Assembly: GCA_951406725.2 (NCBI GenBank)
Contig: OX597816.1
Location: forward strand, 112,096,001 to 112,160,000
Origin: Octopus vulgaris
Lineage: Eukaryota
Direction: 5' to 3'
Length of the DNA: 64,000 nt
Shown: positions 3,421 to 30,739 of the stretch, in pieces
Numbering within the stretch: position 1 is the first letter of the stretch
Layout: each line of letters starts with the position of its first letter
Position numbers and translations under genes: made by a program
The notes under the pieces: model-generated
What the model was told of the DNA's origin: nothing
Database searches by the model: none
What the model saw: only the letters and a program-made list of their open reading frames with translations

Positions 3421-3634
3421 GATTTCAAATTTTATCACAAGGCTAGTAATACCAGAGGGAGGGGGTAAGTTGATTACATTGACCCAGTGCTCAACTGGTG
3501 TTTATTTTATCGATCCTGAAAGGATGAAAGGCCAAGTCAACCTTGGCAGAGTTTGAACTCAGAACATAAAGACTGATGAAATGCCACTAAGCATTTCGCC
3601 AGGTCTGCTAATGATTCTGCCAGCTCACTGCCTT
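3421..3634 (-). mobile_element. SINE family C (tRNA-like head; central gtcgactttgcctttcatcctttcggggtcgataaa..aagtaccag domain)
   Basis: B-box gagttcaaattcc on the minus strand; further copies at 4328-4511, 4529-4748, 6806-7014, 10709-10855, 42044-42245, 42626-42840, 50115-50285 and 58370-58520. Confidence 0.8.
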
Positions 3635-4198: not shown

Positions 4199-5126
4199 CT
4201 CATATTTCGTCCACACTCATTGGCACTACACTGCCTACTATATTCAATCCTTCCTTCCCAGAATACCAGTTCTCTGAAGTTTTAACCTTCCATATTAGTC
4301 AACTTGCAGTTATTCCAAATAAGTATTGGTTTCAAATTTTGGCACAAAGCCAGCAATTTCGTGAGAGTTGGGTAAAGTCAATTACATTGACCCCAAAATG
4401 ATAGAAGGCAAAGTGGACTGTGGTGGCGTTTGAATTCAGAACATAAATTTGGAAGAAATACAACTAAGCATTTTTTCCAAAGCGGTGACAGTTCTGCTAG
4501 CTTACTACCTTACATTCCAAATACACACTGATTTCAAATTTTGGCACTAGGCCAGTAATTTTGGTGGGAGGGGATAAGTTGATTACATTGACCCCCCAGC
4601 ATTCAACTGCTACTTATTTTTATCAACTCCAAAAGGGTGAAAGGCGAAGTTGCTCTCAACAGAATTTGAACTCAGAACGTAAAGACAGACAAAATACTTC
4701 CAAGCATTTCACCTGGCAAATTAATGATTCTGCAAGTTTACTGCATTGTCCCAAATAAATATTAACCAAAACAATCTCTCTGAGAAGGCCATGAACACAA
4801 GCCATTCATTCAAATACAAGCCAATGCCAAAGATAATAGAATGTTTTCTGAAGTAACACTTCAATGGGGGAACTGAAGTATACTGGAAGTATACTGCCAG
4901 AGAGTTGAAGCTAAGAAATGGACTGAACCAACAGGTTGGCAACTTAAAAGATTTGCATACCATATGTGTGAATGTGTGTATATGTCTGAATGGTGTGGAG
5001 GAGATATGCATGCATGTGTGTATATTGTAATATTGGTATCTGTTTTGAGAAGCACATTAGGACACAATATATTTTGTCGTTCTTACTCTGTTTATATCTA
5101 TATAACTGGGATTAACGACTGCCATG

Positions 5127-5206
5127 TCTAGCAGATATGTGTCCAGTACTGAGGAAGGGTAAGACCCTGAAACCAGTTCTGGTCTACTGGTCCTGTTACT
5201 GCTGGA
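5127..5206 (+). ncRNA. Type I hammerhead ribozyme (extended, structurally complete)
   Basis: Stem I CCAGTA(5143-48)/TACTGG(5185-90); core CTGAGGA (5149-55); stem II AGGG/CCCT with TAAGA loop; GAAA (5169-72); stem III ACCA(G)/(C)TGGT; GUC cleavage triplet ending at C5184. A distal stem I helix TCTAGCAG(5127-34)/CTGCTGGA(5199-5206) follows an 8x8 internal loop. Confidence 0.85.
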
Positions 5207-5349
5207 TGGGAGTTGTTCACTCCCTTATTTGCAATATAATGGACACATATTGTGTTATTAACCAGCTGGAGGAGGTGCCCTTCTGAGGTTAATAAGCATA
5301 GTAGCATTGTTCTGTACAGAACAACCATGTTGAGGTGGCAACAACCGTT

Positions 5350-5429
<80 letters not shown>

Positions 5430-7036
5430 TATTTATATATATATATATATATGCACATATTATATATATATATATATATATGCACATATTTATATATGTG
5501 TGTGTTGGTGTCTGCATTGGTATGTGAGGTGGTGGTGTGTGTATCGTGAACTAGTACAATATTTAGACTTACTGAGGCAGTACGTGAAGCCCTAAGCAGT
5601 AGGTTGTTTAGCTTCTGCCTAAATCTGACATAGCTGACAACGTATGGATCTGGCCATATATATAACTCAAGCACATACATTTCTTTATGTATGTTCTAGG
5701 GTGATGTTAGTAGTAGACAGTAGAGTATATAGATAGTAAAAGTTCACATTGTGATGCCCTGGAGCTACAGGATAGTCTAGAATGGCAAAGAAATGTTTCT
5801 ATAGTTACGAAAGATTTCCTGCTTTCAAATTTTGACCTGTGATTATTAAGTCAAATATTTTCACCAAGTTATCTAATGTCAGCTTTCAGAATAAATTCTC
5901 AATCATCTTTCGACGAATTCTATAGACATAATTTTCCTTTAGAATTTAACCCTCCATATTTAGAAAAGTTTACATAACCAATGGACATGTAAATAACTGA
6001 TGATAAATCATAGTTTTCAAAGATATAAAGCTCAACTGCAATAACAAGGAAATCTTATAGACAATGTAAAGGATAGAAATAAACCCATATGTGTATATGT
6101 ATACACACATACACACACACACACTCACATACATATATATATACATATATATACATATATATATATAGATATATATATACATATATATTTCTATATATAT
6201 ATATAAATGTATATGCATATATATATATCTATATATATTGACACACACATATATATACATATATATATACACATCCACATACACACATATATATACATAT
6301 ATATATACACATCCACATACACACATATACATACATACATAAATACGCATGTGCATGCATGTCAAGCAATGCACACACACGCACACACACACACATTCAA
6401 ATAATTATGCATGCATATTTATGATTTGGCAATCAAATGATGATAACCATTATGTACATATAATTCAAGTAGAAGTATTAACACATTTTTAGTTCAGGGA
6501 GGGTATCAGAATAGCAATTGTAGAAGTGACAGTATAATTTCATAATCTATTAATGGCCTGATGTTTGGAGAAGTATATTAAATGTGGGATTTCTGTTAAC
6601 GTACACTGCTTGATTTCAGACATGTTTTGGTGTGAAGAGAATAACTTTCCAGTGTTCAGTGTATTATTGTTCAGTAAATGTTTGACACCTATTTAAAGTT
6701 AACCTTGTTTAGAAGTAAAATATTATGGTTTTTCACTGTGTTGTTGTCAGAGACTTATCAAATGTGTAGTTTGCGATTTGCAATGCTTTGACATATCTAT
6801 TGGATTAGATTGGCAGAATTGTTAAAGCATCTGACAAAATGATTTATAGTTTCAGTTCTAGATATTTTTACATTCTGAGTGCTAATTCTGCAAAGGCCAA
6901 CTTTACAGTTCATCTTCCTAAAACTGATGAAATAAGTACCAGTCATGTATTGAAGAAAACAGCAGATTGTTACCTTCAACTCAAAATTTCAGGCTTTGTT
7001 CCTTTGTAAGAAACACTTATTTTTTAGTATTGGAGG

Positions 7037-9451: not shown

Positions 9452-10326
9452 CGAGGTGGAATCAAAAAGTTCCTGTACTGATTCTGTAGCATGCCAACAG
9501 ATAGCAGCACATGGTTGCTTGCACAGTAAGAGCTAGCAGTGACCTTCATGAGGCAGTGCACCAAGTGACATTGCTATGTTTACTTTGCAAGTTGTGAAAT
9601 TTGTGTTTTTGTGATCACGTGTATGCTGTAGTCTGCGATTTTGTCATGGACAGGAGCAAAGAGCCAATGTTAAATTTTGCACTAAACTTAGGAAGTCTGC
9701 TACAGAGACACTGAACATGCTTCAGCAAGCTTGTGGCAGCAAAACAATGGGTCTTACACAATGTTTTGAGTGGTGTAGGTGTTTCAAAAGCAGAAGAATG
9801 TCTCTGGAAGAGAATGGGTGATCTGGAAGACCTACCACAAGCATCAACCCTGGAAATGTGGCATTGTGCATCGAGAATTTGTTCCCCAAGGTCAAACCAT
9901 CAATTGAGAGTTCTACTGTAATGTTTTGAAGTATTTGAGGGAGGGCATTCATTGAAAGCAACCAGATTTGTGAAGCGTGAAGAATTGGATTCTTCACTGA
10001 GCTCACCTCACTAGTGAGTTTCTCACCAAAAATAACATGGCACTGCTTCTTCCGTACCCACCCTATTTGCAAGATTTAGCAACTGCAGACTTCCATCTCT
10101 TCCTCCAAGTTGAAAATGCTGCTCAAAGATCACTGTTTTAACACTGATGTTAAGATCAAGAGCGAATTGCAAAAGGTCCTTGACTAGCTTACAGAAAACA
10201 ACTTCCAGGCCAGATTCCAAAAGTGGCTGGGATGGTATATTGCTGTGCAAGGTGACTACTTCAAAGGAGATGATGTCAAAACTTAAGTTAACATAACTAG
10301 TCTGGGAACCTTTTGATACCACCTCA
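9452..10326 (+). mobile_element. Internally deleted mariner (non-autonomous), ~875 bp
   Basis: TA-flanked imperfect ~28-bp TIRs (cgaggtggaatcaaaaagttcc / ggaaccttttgataccacctca). Decayed transposase: EQRANVKFC...SGRPTTS joined directly to GIVHREFVPQGQTIN...HPPYLQDLATADFHLF. Confidence 0.88.
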
Positions 10327-13931: not shown

Positions 13932-15223
13932 CGAGGGGCGTTCAATAAGTAATGCCCCTGACCCACTTCCCAAAGCAGTAGAGCAACGAAACTTGGCACA
14001 GTTATTAGTCTTTTTCTACATAGGAACCACCCAGAGTTACGCATTTCTCCCATCGTTTGATGCGGCTCTGGAGACCGTTTTTGTAGAAGAACCCAACTTG
14101 GTCCTCCAACCTGAACATGACTTCAGAAATCAAGGCTGCATCATCTGGGAAACGCATTCCTTTCAAAAACAACTTCATGATTGGGAAGAGGTGAAAATCA
14201 GAGGGTGCAAGGTCAGAAAAGTAGGGGGGGATGGGGAGGAGTTCATAGCCATACGCCTGTGCTTCTGATCTGGCGACAAGCGAGTTGTGGACCGGAGCGT
14301 TGTCCTGCAGGAGGAGGATGCCTTTGCTGATCTTGCCCCGCCTCTTGATTTTGATAACTTCTCTTAATTTCCTCAAAAGTGAAGCATAATAGGCTCCTGC
14401 AATTGTGGTACCCTTTGCCAGGAAATCTGTCATCACTACTCCGTCCTGGTCCCAGAAGACTGTGAGCATGACCTTGCCAGCAGAGGGCTGCACCCTTGCC
14501 TTCTTTGGAGGGGGTGAGTCACGGTGCTTCCACTGCATTGACTGGGCTTTGGTCTCTGGATCATCGTGATGGACCCAGGTTTCATCCTGTGTAATCAGTC
14601 TTTTGAAAAATTTTGACTCATCTTCTTGGCACATCTCCAAATTCACCCTCGAGCACTCGATGCGTTCTTGCTTCTGGAAAGGCATGAGCGACCTGGGAAT
14701 CCATCTGGCAGACACCTTTTGCATATGCAAATGGTCATGAATGATAGTTTCCAAAGACCCGGTACTAATCTTGACCTCATGGACTATTTGGCGAATAATT
14801 ATGCGTCGATCTTCCAAAATGGCAGCCTCAACTTGACGGACAGATGCCTCATCAATGTCAAAAGGGGGCGACCAGATCTGGGAGCTGTTTCCACAGAGTT
14901 CCGACCATGTTTGAATTCACGATGCCAGCGTTTTACAAGGTCATATGATGGGGCATCATCACCATAAGTTACTTTAATTTCATCAAAAGTTTCCCGTGGT
15001 GTGCGTCCTTTCAAATACAAAAACCGGATCACTGCTCGACACTCAACAGGCTCCATTTCACACTTGACTCGGTTCAAACACCTGTAAATCAGAAACCACA
15101 ATTAGTTCAGAGCTGTAATTTGCCACTTACTCTATAGAGATATACATAATTGCACAAGCAAAATTTCAGCTAGATCAAACAAATGCAAGTGGGTCAGAGG
15201 CATTACTTATTGAACGTCCCTCG
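13932..15223 (-). mobile_element. Full-length mariner transposon (DD34D, irritans-like), 1,292 bp
   Basis: 37-bp TIRs (13932-13968 / 15187-15223, 2 mismatches) flanked by TA on both sides; encloses a transposase reading frame. Confidence 0.95.
14005..15056 (-). pseudogene. Mariner transposase with a single frameshift
   Basis: Starts MEPVECRAVIRFLYLKG... (ATG at 15056), with an HTH to GRP and a frameshift near 14860. It continues WIPRSL, TQDETWVHH, LLQDNAPVH...YFSDLAPSDFHLF (34 residues between the 2nd and 3rd Asp) to the stop at 14005. Confidence 0.92.
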
Positions 15224-15504: not shown

Positions 15505-16776
15505 ATTGAAGGTCGTCAAGTATGAAATTTGTAACAAGGTATATGGTAAACTTTGACAGCTACTCATTTTGTGCCATTATTATATTTTGACAATCTTTAT
15601 TTTTTGTTAGAAAGCTGACACATCTATTTCTTTATTCTAACTCAGTTTGTGCTTTATAAAGTATTCGTAAATCGTTTTTTGCTAGTTTTGTTTAGAGATG
15701 GATAGGTCAGAAATTTGTACAGTTTTGAAATATGAGTTCTTTCTTGGAAATACAGCATTACAGACAGCTCGGAATATTAATAGAGTATTTCATTCTAATG
15801 TTATTGCACAACAGACAGTATCAAATTAGTTTGCAAAATTTCATCCTGGTGACTTTAACCTCACAAATGAGCAATAGGGTTGACCAGAAACAAAGGTGGA
15901 TAATGACAAACTGAAAGCCACCATCAAGTCAGCTCCATCTCAAAGTGCCCGTGAATAATCGTTGTTGTTTGGTGTTTGCAAGCAATCACTATTGACTCAC
16001 CTAGTTCAAATCAGTAAAATGAAAAAGTTAGATAAGTGGGTTCGACATGAACTCAATGAAAATCAGAAACAGCAATGTTTGGAAGCCTGCATTATGCTTC
16101 TTGCTCATCACAAAAATGAATCATTTTTTAATTGAATTATAACATGTGATGAGAAATTGATCTAATACAACAACCATAAACATTCAGCATAATGGTTGGA
16201 CAAAGATGAGCCACCAAAATACAGTCCAAAAAACAAAATTCATCAAAAGAAGCTGATGATGTGTGTTTGGTGGTCTGGCGCAGGTATGATCTATTATGAT
16301 TTCATTAAACCTGGCTCATCAATCACGGCTGAAGTATACTGCAGCCAGCTAGACCAGAAACTTACAAAAAAAAAACCCAGCCTAGATTAGTAAACATCAA
16401 TTCCTATTTTATTGCAAGACAATGTCAGACCATATATCCCAAAAATGACAGTGGAGAAACCACATGAGTTGGAGTTGGAAGTTATCCATCATCCACCATA
16501 CTCACCTGATCTTGTCCCCACTGACTACCACTTCTAAAATTTGGATAACTTTTTGATAGGAAAAAACTAATTCTGACGATGTTGTAAAACAGGCCTACCA
16601 AGATTTTATTGATTGTAGATAGCCAGGCTTTTACAGTTTCAGGCTGAACAAGCCACTGCTGAAATGGCAAAAAAAAAGTGTTGACAATATGGGGTATATT
16701 TTGATGAATAAAGCTATTCATTGTATTTATAAAACATTAGCAAACTTTTTTCTTTTCTGCAAATTTCCTACTTGAT
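15505..16776 (+). mobile_element. Decayed full-length mariner (cecropia/Hsmar1-like)
   Basis: Remnant TIR tcaagta(t/g)gaaatttg at both ends. Decayed ORF from ATG 15698 to 16711 with KLDKWVRHEL, ITCDEK, LQDNVRP and HPPYSPDLVPTDYHF; many stops. Confidence 0.85.
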
Positions 16777-28429: not shown

Positions 28430-28973
28430 TTGGGTTGTCCAGAAAGTACATGCCAATTTATAGTAGCTTACTTTTGAATTAGGATTTGATTGCACCTCCA
28501 TTTAGAGCACAGTTTAAGCTATCTTTTCATGGAAGAAGGTTTATGTTCCTATAACCTGTGTTAATTCTGTAACCTTTAAAATGGAAGATAAGAAAGTTCA
28601 TTTTCAGCACTTGATGCTTTTCGTTTTGCGTAAAGGAAAAATGCCTCACAAGCAACCAAAGAAATATGCACAATTTGCGGTGATGTTTCTTTATCTGAAA
28701 GAACTGTACGGAAGTGGTTCGCAAGGTTCCAAGCTGGAGATTGTAGCCTTATTGATAAAGAGCGATCAGGCAGACCATCCACTACAGATGATGACCAAAT
28801 CAAGTCATTAATAGAGAATAACCCACATTGCACAACCGAGAATTGGCAGAAAGCCTCAACCTGTCAAAAAAAGTTGTTCATGAGTACCTGGTAAAGCTTG
28901 GGTACACAAATCGCTACGATGTTTGGGTACCACATGAGTTGAGTGAGAAGAGCCTTTTGGATTGCATTTCCAT
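28430..28973 (+). mobile_element. 5' half of a mariner (mellifera-like)
   Basis: TA + ttgggttgtcc TIR start; MEDKKVHFQHLMLF..RKGKNASQA..KWFARF..RSGRP..RYDVWVPHELSEK; breaks off at the junction with an RTE LINE. Confidence 0.88.
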
Positions 28974-30522
28974 CTGTCTTCCTAGGTCTACCTCTACCCC
29001 GGATTCCTTCAACTATTTGGGAGTGGCACTTCTTCACACATCTTTCCTCATCCATCCATAGTACATGACCATACCAGTGTAAACGTCTCTCTTGCACGCC
29101 ACATCTGATACTTCTTAGGTCCAGCATTTCTCTCAGGGCACTTACACTCTGTCGTGTGTGCACACTGACATTACACATCCAGTGGATCATGCTAGTTTCA
29201 TTTCTTTCAAGCCTACGCATGTCCTCTGCAGTCACAGCCCATGTTTCACTACCGTGAAGCATGGCAGTTCACACACATGCATCAGACAATCTACCTTTCA
29301 CCCTGAGTGAGAGACCCCTTGTCACCAGTAGGGGTAGAAGCTTTCTAAACTTTGCCTAGGCTATTCGTATTCTAGTGGTGACACTCTCTGAGAATCCACC
29401 TCCACTACTAACTTGGTCACCTAGGTAGCGGAAACTATCAACTACTTCTAGTTTCTCCCACTAGAGTGTGATGGAATCTCTTTTCTGAGTATCCGTGGTG
29501 TCTATTGCCCCTGTGCATCTGCCGCACATGAAAGCTATCTTCTCGGTTAATTTTCCTTTGATGTTGCTGCACCTCTTATGTTTCCATAGCTTACACTGGG
29601 TACATCTTATGAAGTTTCTACCTACACCTTTTCTACAGATCAAGCAGGGCCACCTACCTGAAGGGGTGTGTGATGAGTTCGCCTTCCTACTTACTATAAC
29701 TTTGGTCTTTGCTACATTGATACTAAGGCCTTTTGATTCTAAACACCCGAAATTTCTTTTCGAGTTCCAGTAGGAATTCTTCTATGAGGGCCAGGTCATC
29801 AGCACAGAGGAGCTCCCAGGGGCAACCCGTCTTGAGTTCCTCTGTTATTGCCTGGAGGACTATGATGAATAAAAGGGGACTGAGGGCTAAACCTTGGTGG
29901 ACTCCTACTTCTACCCGGAATTCTTCACTATACTCGTTGCCAATCCTAACCTTACTACCGGCCTCTCTGTATAGGGCCTGTACAGCCATTATTAACCATT
30001 CATCAATCTCCAGTTTGCACATCGCCCACCAGATAAGGGATCAGGGGACCCTGTTAAAGGCTTTCTCCAAGTCCACGAAAACTAAGTAGAGGGATTTATC
30101 TTTAGCTAGGTATTTCTCCTGCAGTTGTTGAGCCAGGAATATGGCATTAGTGGTGCTTCTATCCGGCACAAAACCGAACTGCATCTCATCTAAGCAAACT
30201 CTCTCCCTAATGAGATGGGCTATGACCTTCTCTGTGACCTTCATCACCTGATCCAGCAGTTTAATACCCCTGTAGTTATTTCTATCTAGAGCATCACATT
30301 TACCCTTGTAGCAGTTGACTATGGTGCTGCTACCCCAGTCACTGGATATGACTCCATTATGAACTACCTGGTTTACAATGCGGGTGACTAGGCCATAGCC
30401 CACGCCACCAGATGTTTTAAACATCTCAGCAGTGATTCCTGATGGACCGGGGGCTTTTCCTGGCTTCATACCCTTAATTGCTTTATCTACTAGGGAGCTG
30501 TCTATTGGGATAGCTGGTCCTT
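28974..30522 (-). mobile_element. RTE-clade LINE fragment (reverse transcriptase region, decayed)
   Basis: KPGKAPGPSGITAEM, NYRGIKLL, QFGF, FVDLEKAFNRVP, GVHQG..LSPLLF, LCADDLAL, a Cys-rich module, LHGSETW, RRLHWYGHV, GRGRPRKT; frameshifted. Confidence 0.92.
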
Positions 30523-30739
30523 GGCAAGATAAACTGTAATGAATATATAATACTGTATACTATGCAAGTGTATATAGTTCATATTTTTATAAACTAAATG
30601 TGAAATTTCTGTCTTATAATATTTACTAATGCTGATTCTATTTACATTACTTGAATTTAATTCCTCTCTATTTAATGCAGTATGTAAGATAGTTGGGTGT
30701 AAATATATTCAATTATCATCATGAAATTCTCTCTCAATC

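Follow-up and report, generated by a model that had tools for sequence, protein, structure and literature searches.

An intact type I hammerhead in a truncated copy of a dispersed octopus repeat, likely a non-LTR retrozyme with Penelope-type insertion scars

The window, the whole 64,000-nucleotide stretch of Octopus vulgaris DNA analysed here, encodes one complete canonical type I hammerhead ribozyme on the forward strand, identified by reading the sequence and by a descriptor scan (Table 1). The scan of both strands of the 64 kb returned this single match at loose and strict settings alike, and 150 block-wise dinucleotide shuffles returned no match at either setting. All conserved core positions (C3 U4 G5 A6 N7 G8 A9, G12 A13 A14, the A15.1–U16.1 pair and H17) are present together with the three helices, of which stem I is open-ended, confirming the complete core reported in a preliminary description of this DNA that was made from the sequence alone. 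The same description gave stem I 6 bp and stem II 4 bp, which we also find, and stem III 4–5 bp; stem III has 4 bp closed by a GUUC loop and not 5, because a fifth pair would leave a 2-nt loop. Pair 10.1–11.1, a G–C pair in the conserved hammerhead consensus (PMC4209133), is A–U in this hammerhead and in 48 of 60 rows family-wide.

The motif lies in a 5'-truncated copy of a repeat, the only match of the repeat profile in the window. This copy covers model positions 89–357 of 357 (0.74 unit) and ends at the first fixed 3' end of the family. Open reading frames (ORFs) overlapping the repeat had no Pfam match, and the proposal of an extended type I hammerhead in a non-coding repeat is supported. 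The repeat had also been placed between microsatellites, with a start at 4990; it begins at 5089, and only its 3' end adjoins a microsatellite. Pieces of a very high-copy SINE-like repeat lie upstream at 4312–4747 and 3540–3634, and in all four sequencing runs, the presumed RNA run included, contig depth peaked far above the rest at positions 4668–4706.

Table 1. Coordinates in the window of the hammerhead, its structural extensions and the repeat copy that carries it
Feature	Position	Strand	Basis or remark
Type I hammerhead, whole motif	5143..5190	+	Sequence and descriptor scan; exact 48-mer once in genome
Stem I	5143-5148 with 5185-5190	+	6 bp
Core CUGAGGA	5149-5155	+	Sequence
Stem II	5156-5159 with 5165-5168	+	4 bp, loop UAAGA
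GAAA	5169-5172	+	Sequence
Stem III	5172-5175 with 5180-5183	+	4 bp, loop GUUC
GUC triplet	5182-5184	+	Sequence
Predicted cut, following C17 (C5184) in the GUC triplet	5184..5185	+	Hammerhead numbering on sequence
Predicted tertiary contact, last loop II A (5164) and unpaired U1.7 (5191)	5164..5191	+	Family conservation; PMC11875169
Family helix closing the stem I bulge	5134-5139/5192-5197	+	Weakened in window copy: C5136T, G5138T, C5197T
Distal stem (8 bp in the preliminary description)	5127-5134/5199-5206	+	Folding
Predicted rod-like long stem I extension	5108-5126 with 5207-5224	+	Folding; competes with local 5208-5224 hairpin
5'-truncated copy of the hammerhead-bearing non-coding repeat	5089..5352	+	Profile match 237.5 bits, only one in window
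(TA)n microsatellite directly behind the 3' end of the copy	5354..5497	.	Likely insertion target

The folding of the element was evaluated in several sequence contexts. The region 5100–5230 folds at z = −2.85, and in the context of the element the active fold lies within 0.1 kcal/mol of the minimum-energy fold. In models without tertiary contacts and Mg2+, the share of the ensemble taken up by the active fold is 4–9% in four of the five transcripts modelled and 0.4% when the 48-mer is folded alone; it is low because the CUG of the core can mispair with the 5' strand of stem III. U1.7 and the last A of loop II are the residues of a conserved Hoogsteen contact (PMC11875169). Both are present in the window copy (U5191 and A5164) and are kept across the family (A in 56 and U in 57 of 61 subfamily-assigned rows), but the 6-bp helix next to the stem I bulge has decayed in the window copy by three changes, so that the closing of the bulge is weakened. 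With the contact residues present and family-conserved, the window hammerhead is plausibly active in vitro, and we hold such activity to be moderately probable. It resembles the Schistosoma Sm-alpha hammerhead in its 6-bp stem I, 4-bp stem II, bulged stem I extension and U1.7 and last-loop-A contact residues, and differs from it in the A10.1–U11.1 pair in place of G–C, the 5-nt loop II and the 4-bp stem III with its GUUC loop.

Beyond the bulge, the 8-bp distal part of stem I that had been described is real, with two of its pairs resting on a private change of this copy (C5200T). The hairpin placed at 5208–5224, in turn, is outcompeted by the long stem I extension in two of three sequence contexts: the pair probabilities of hairpin and extension were 0.00 versus 0.99 in 5100–5236, 0.18 versus 0.81 in 5089–5354, and 0.50 versus 0.49 in 5000–5354. 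The subfamilies of the repeat differ by pair-keeping changes further out in this extension, including one pair that turns from A–U to G–C between subfamilies (14 rows).

Eighteen full units, drawn from 67 distinct loci, gave a profile that defines a repeat unit of 357 nt with about 42% GC. When the 2.8-Gb genome (227 contigs) was searched with the window copy, the best 40 of 565 candidates gave 46 matches, and the non-self matches were 72–87% identical to the query; other family members as queries gave 1,141, 1,383 and 685 candidates. These numbers (565–1,383) are lower bounds and not copy numbers, and they show the repeat to be multi-copy. The copies sampled are the best matches of longer lists and are biased toward long, well-kept copies. 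A segmental duplicate locus (L024) was dropped, as were antisense self-matches of the hairpin region before segments were counted, two chimeric rows from the decay count and six of 68 candidate rows. Natural units folded as circles at z between −1.3 and −7.6 (six tested). The genome contains the exact 48-mer of the hammerhead a single time and a 28-mer three times; therefore the 357-nt family is not in a young burst, and such a burst was ruled out. In a small subfamily (L014, L038 and L055), each strand of stem I has one extra base, a compensatory insertion, and the base of stem II has an A–A mismatch.

The dispersed copies decay neutrally. Among 70 copies spanning the ribozyme, the core was kept in 24 and the core with all stems in 5, and the core columns departed from the majority in 89 of 772 cells (11.5%) compared with 1,408 of 13,780 cells (10.2%) in comparable outside columns (p = 0.25). 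RNAalifold predicted no pair on 62 copies and pair-level covariation was not above the shuffle control (310/500), both of which fit neutral decay. The preliminary description had looked to homologous copies for conservation of core and stems and for covariation; the former is found only as constraint between subfamilies, and the latter stayed at shuffle level. Pair counting gave 85.1% of cells pairing versus 30–41% in slid controls, a weak control because the structure was drawn from the same sequences.

A different pattern emerged when three subfamilies (12, 23 and 26 rows) were compared. Of the 12 free positions (N7, those in loops II and III, and H17), 7 carried subfamily-diagnostic changes, compared with none of the 37 positions in the core, the stems and the tertiary contact. 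When the two group-defining positions are set aside, the counts become 5 of 10 free versus 0 of 37 constrained positions (p = 1.6e-4). Since the subfamily changes spare the core and stems, the source elements were under selection and needed the ribozyme.

The ends of the copies were then considered as insertion scars. Two fixed ends accounted for 83 of 105 segments: 47 stopped where the unit ends, and 36 ran on for about 60 nt of the following unit. The 5' ends were scattered. Head-to-tail wrapping across the unit end was seen in 46 of the 105 segments, and 26 were longer than one unit. A head-to-head inverted partner was present at 20 of 67 loci, and a microsatellite followed 47 of the 83 fixed ends, compared with a background of 20%. 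Inverted loci had one of each end in 9 of 13 cases and the first end on both arms in 4 of 13, which is not significant (p = 0.13). Three segments of 550–591 nt (L054, L109 and L123) run through two cleavage sites, which a cleaved linear monomer could not have templated; the template was therefore either circular or a multimer left uncut. Among the 67 loci, no array reached two full units, the longest segment being 591 nt (1.65 units). Truncation on the 5' side, an upstream copy in inverted orientation, a tail confined to one end and a microsatellite bias are hallmarks of Penelope elements (PMC8557442), and the scars suggest that the family was copied by Penelope-type retrotransposons.

The 357-nt profile also matched an array of three units in L091, which belongs to a young 362-nt retrozyme-like family (L091:139-1078, minus strand; L230:1501-1862; L231) with 987 candidates. 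Homology between the two families scored 27 bits, versus 0.6 for the best of 200 shuffles, and the 362-nt family is 63% identical to the window copy over 169 nt. Across 26 loci, its long matches average 99.6% identity; at least two units were present in 15 of 48 segments, with a maximum of 4.4 units. Of 48 ends, 45 fell on one of two points separated by 63 nt, almost always running into a TA tract, and the first of these points aligns with the first end of the 357-nt family. Inverted loci had one arm per end in 18 of 20 cases by hand count (p = 2e-4). The hammerhead of the 362-nt family keeps the fold with different stems, a 3-bp palindromic stem III and U3–A8 in place of C3–G8, a core swap that has been reported (PMC4209133). 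An older variant of the family, 81% identical, is present in L215.

Young elements coding for a reverse transcriptase (RT) and a GIY-YIG domain, with intact frames and a CX4CX2C linker of the Neptune/Nematis type, are present in the same genome. One Neptune-type family of 1,312 aa has 5,466 candidates, many of them identical; a second RT/GIY-YIG family has 781 aa. The two end points of the 1,312-aa element are separated by 56 nt and again run into TA tracts; by hand count, the element had one of each end in 7 of 7 fully visible inverted loci. For neither retrozyme unit, of 357 or 362 nt, did we find a link by sequence to a Penelope terminal repeat, and a profile match of the unit to such repeats was found at 0 of 99 loci, sister-family copies aside; it is therefore from the scars only that we infer the mobilising partner. 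On this basis a Neptune-type element is the likely helper, and both the 1,312-aa family, whose ends were mapped, and the 781-aa family are candidates.

Several further observations concern these elements. The intact 1,312-aa Neptune-type ORF at L097:1263-5198 (plus strand) has an asparagine-rich insert, with no Pfam match. A terminal repeat motif of this element is found at L097:1131 and 5719, and the terminal repeat carries a hammerhead-like motif in which G8 is followed by an atypical base. The 781-aa family (L203, L208 and L222, about 1750-2400; L204, L206, L207, L210, L215 and L221) has a 3' region with tandem repeats of about 90 nt carrying ATTGG and TGACGTC motifs, which we take to be CCAAT-box and CRE-like, and elements related to it have a hammerhead-like motif with a U3–A8 core. 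About 9–11 kb to the right of the window lies a broken older Penelope-like element with RT and GIY-YIG pieces (L104:9440-10000 and L105:917-1378), which has 17,331 candidates genome-wide; a hammerhead-like motif with a long stem II at L104:6391 (minus strand) is unrelated to the 357-nt unit. The locus L028, considered as a link between the unit and Penelope, was ruled out because it is a distinct young element that carries a terminal repeat of its own.

Taken together, the intact type I hammerhead of the window sits in a truncated copy that decays neutrally and belongs to an old dispersed repeat of 357 nt. This repeat is probably a non-LTR retrozyme, predicted to have spread via self-cleaved circular RNA that Penelope-like enzymes copied. 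The cited basis for such a mechanism is PMC7229834 (sections 14 and 17). In the proposed cycle, tandem source arrays would be transcribed, the hammerheads would cut the array transcript into monomers, and a host ligase would close the monomers into highly paired circles. A Neptune-type RT/GIY-YIG protein would then nick (TA)n DNA, prime at either of two sites, which lie about 170 and 230 nt beyond the cleavage junction, and go round the circle for 0.2 to more than 1.6 units. The window copy has one hammerhead and thus cannot make a circle, which renders it a dead-end product that would only cut RNA happening to be transcribed through it on the plus strand. We give about even chances to a more specific version, in which the genome documents successive waves of one retrozyme lineage. 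A Neptune-type Penelope protein would here prime synthesis on the retrozyme circles from two fixed sites separated by about 60 nt, with each arm of an inversion using a different site, and the RNA of the autonomous element itself would be handled in the same way. If this is true, the 362-nt family and the intact 1,312-aa element would form a live parasite-host pair for reconstituting rolling-circle retrotransposition.

The family shares several features with metazoan non-LTR retrozymes: a 357-nt non-coding unit (about 170–400 nt in the class) with under 45% GC, a canonical type I hammerhead, head-to-tail organisation, a stable circular fold and Penelope elements in the same genome. Units of mussel non-LTR retrozymes measure 350–390 bp (Cervera and de la Pena 2020, PMC7229834). 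Unlike them, however, the 357-nt family survives as dispersed fragments of 0.2–1.65 units. The sections of PMC7229834 on which we draw name Penelope elements only as strong candidates for retrozyme mobilisation, and Li, Clavereau and Pollet (2026, 10.64898/2026.07.22.740005) base their case for a Penelope origin of retrozymes on co-occurrence and on trees from Xenopus. In Xenopus, 24 of 57 retrozyme families match known elements (10.64898/2026.07.22.740005), whereas for the octopus unit we found no such link to a Penelope terminal repeat. The two fixed priming ends, one per inversion arm, also set it apart from the retrozymes in the parts of these two papers that we cite.

The same mobile family could have been copied from linear read-through transcripts of tandem arrays, as a SINE-like passenger of Penelope with no circle. 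An uncleaved linear multimer would also yield wrapped copies longer than one unit, linear RNA easily gives fixed 3' ends, the low predicted occupancy of the active fold is in keeping with such a template, and only one of nine tested retrozyme dimers cleaved in the experiments of 10.64898/2026.07.22.740005. However, selection on the source hammerhead implies that cleavage mattered, and cleavage would destroy the multimers; the circular folds are strongly stable, and circles have been shown for mussel, coral and axolotl retrozymes (PMC7229834). Copying from a linear template is therefore unlikely.

The repeat might also be the terminal repeat (pLTR) of an autonomous Penelope-like element, with the window copy as its truncated tail. 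Every insertion scar is of Penelope type, hammerheads occur in Penelope tails, and the minimal hammerheads of animal Penelope-like terminal repeats share with the octopus motif the type I topology and the Penelope-type scars (PMC4209133); in one subfamily of the 357-nt family (subfamily B), a palindromic AGCU loop III suited to dimers adds to this likeness. Those minimal hammerheads, though, have a stem II of 7–8 bp, a stem I of 4–5 bp and little or no stem III (PMC4209133), whereas the window hammerhead is canonical, with its 6-bp stem I, 4-bp stem II and tertiary residues, and has no ORF attached. Upstream of long copies there is more of the unit and never a shared ORF. The unit was preceded by an RT/GIY-YIG ORF at 0 of 67 loci, and any Penelope coding piece was found at only 2 of the 67, in neither case joined in sense to the 5' side of the unit. 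An origin as a terminal repeat is accordingly very unlikely, and a retrozyme remains the preferred reading.

A host role was evaluated as well. The preliminary description had suggested that the hammerhead could lie sense within an intron and cut the pre-mRNA, as would be the case if the host had co-opted the copy in the manner of amniote intronic hammerheads. No host exon was recognised by Pfam in 131 long and 109 short ORFs of the window or in 138 flanking ORFs drawn from 40 kb to its left and 30 kb to its right, a search that short or unannotated exons would escape. Fifty of 181 long window ORFs had been left out by hand as repeat-derived or overlapping, and the short ORFs were filtered for repeats and low GC. 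The only matches were to mariner and RTE-type reverse transcriptase, plus one sub-threshold match, and the 70 kb of flank yielded no protein family, which leaves the intronic role unsupported. Pieces of mariner transposase, along with a broken reverse transcriptase of RTE type that has a PHD-like finger, occupy 14008-15101 (minus), 16193-16387 (plus), 9615-9818 (plus) and 28867-30559 (minus) of the window. The ribozyme belongs to a mobile-element life cycle and not demonstrably to the host. Three short contigs listed from one presumed RNA run differ from the window copy by 7–11%; they are paralogues and speak neither for nor against its expression.

Some data are nevertheless in line with co-option. 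The window copy has 0 changes in the 48-mer compared with 12 of 170 comparable positions outside it (p = 0.034), and it is predicted to fold best among the five intact copies. A contig labelled as from a second organism spans 4670-5168 with 2 substitutions in 493 positions (99.6%) and a 6-base gap, so the insertion is shared by both. Against this, the p value is unremarkable because the window copy was selected for its intact hammerhead. Intact copies number 5 of 70 in any case, and across its sequence as a whole this one has diverged less than the average copy (rank 13 of 72). The helix closing its tertiary bulge has decayed, and the second organism is too close for a test of selection. Amniote intronic hammerheads such as that of RECK are likewise isolated canonical type I motifs in non-coding DNA, but they are conserved across deep lineages in known introns (PMC6155905), whereas the window copy is known without a host gene or locus-level conservation. 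We regard co-option as highly improbable and the window hammerhead as a likely chance survivor, because the core decays like the rest of the repeat and 5 of 70 copies stay intact.

That the motif resembles a hammerhead by chance has next to no probability: the search with Rfam hammerhead models that had been proposed as a check gave no match at the gathering threshold or at E ≤ 10 (only microsatellite-driven microRNA noise was returned), but none of 150 shuffled windows matched the descriptor, the subfamily changes avoid exactly the constrained positions, and the sister family keeps the fold with a swapped 3–8 core pair and different stems. The Rfam hammerhead models are presumably lineage-biased, and an Rfam match would be no defining feature of the ribozyme class.

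Animal genomes hold thousands of hammerheads, and the hammerhead itself is ordinary. The repeat family of the window is likely an additional non-LTR retrozyme, and its new and testable point is the Penelope-type scar. Two retrozyme families and a young Neptune-type element share this scar, with two 3' ends 56–63 nt apart, one per inverted arm, into TA tracts, which gives junction-level support on how animal retrozymes are reverse-transcribed and inserted. Together with the young sister family, the shared scar provides a concrete protein–RNA pair that makes the question of mobilisation testable. We found no description of this family or of a two-end retrozyme scar in the literature searched on octopus and cephalopod hammerheads and on retrozymes in connection with Neptune elements or with tails and inversions; paper supplements, Repbase and Dfam may list the family.

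Another family copy, in L012 at about 1230-1500, has its core and stems intact and lies in sense about 60 nt behind an exon with a tyrosine-kinase catalytic motif and a GT donor. Compared with the window copy, it would be the stronger candidate for cutting within an intron.
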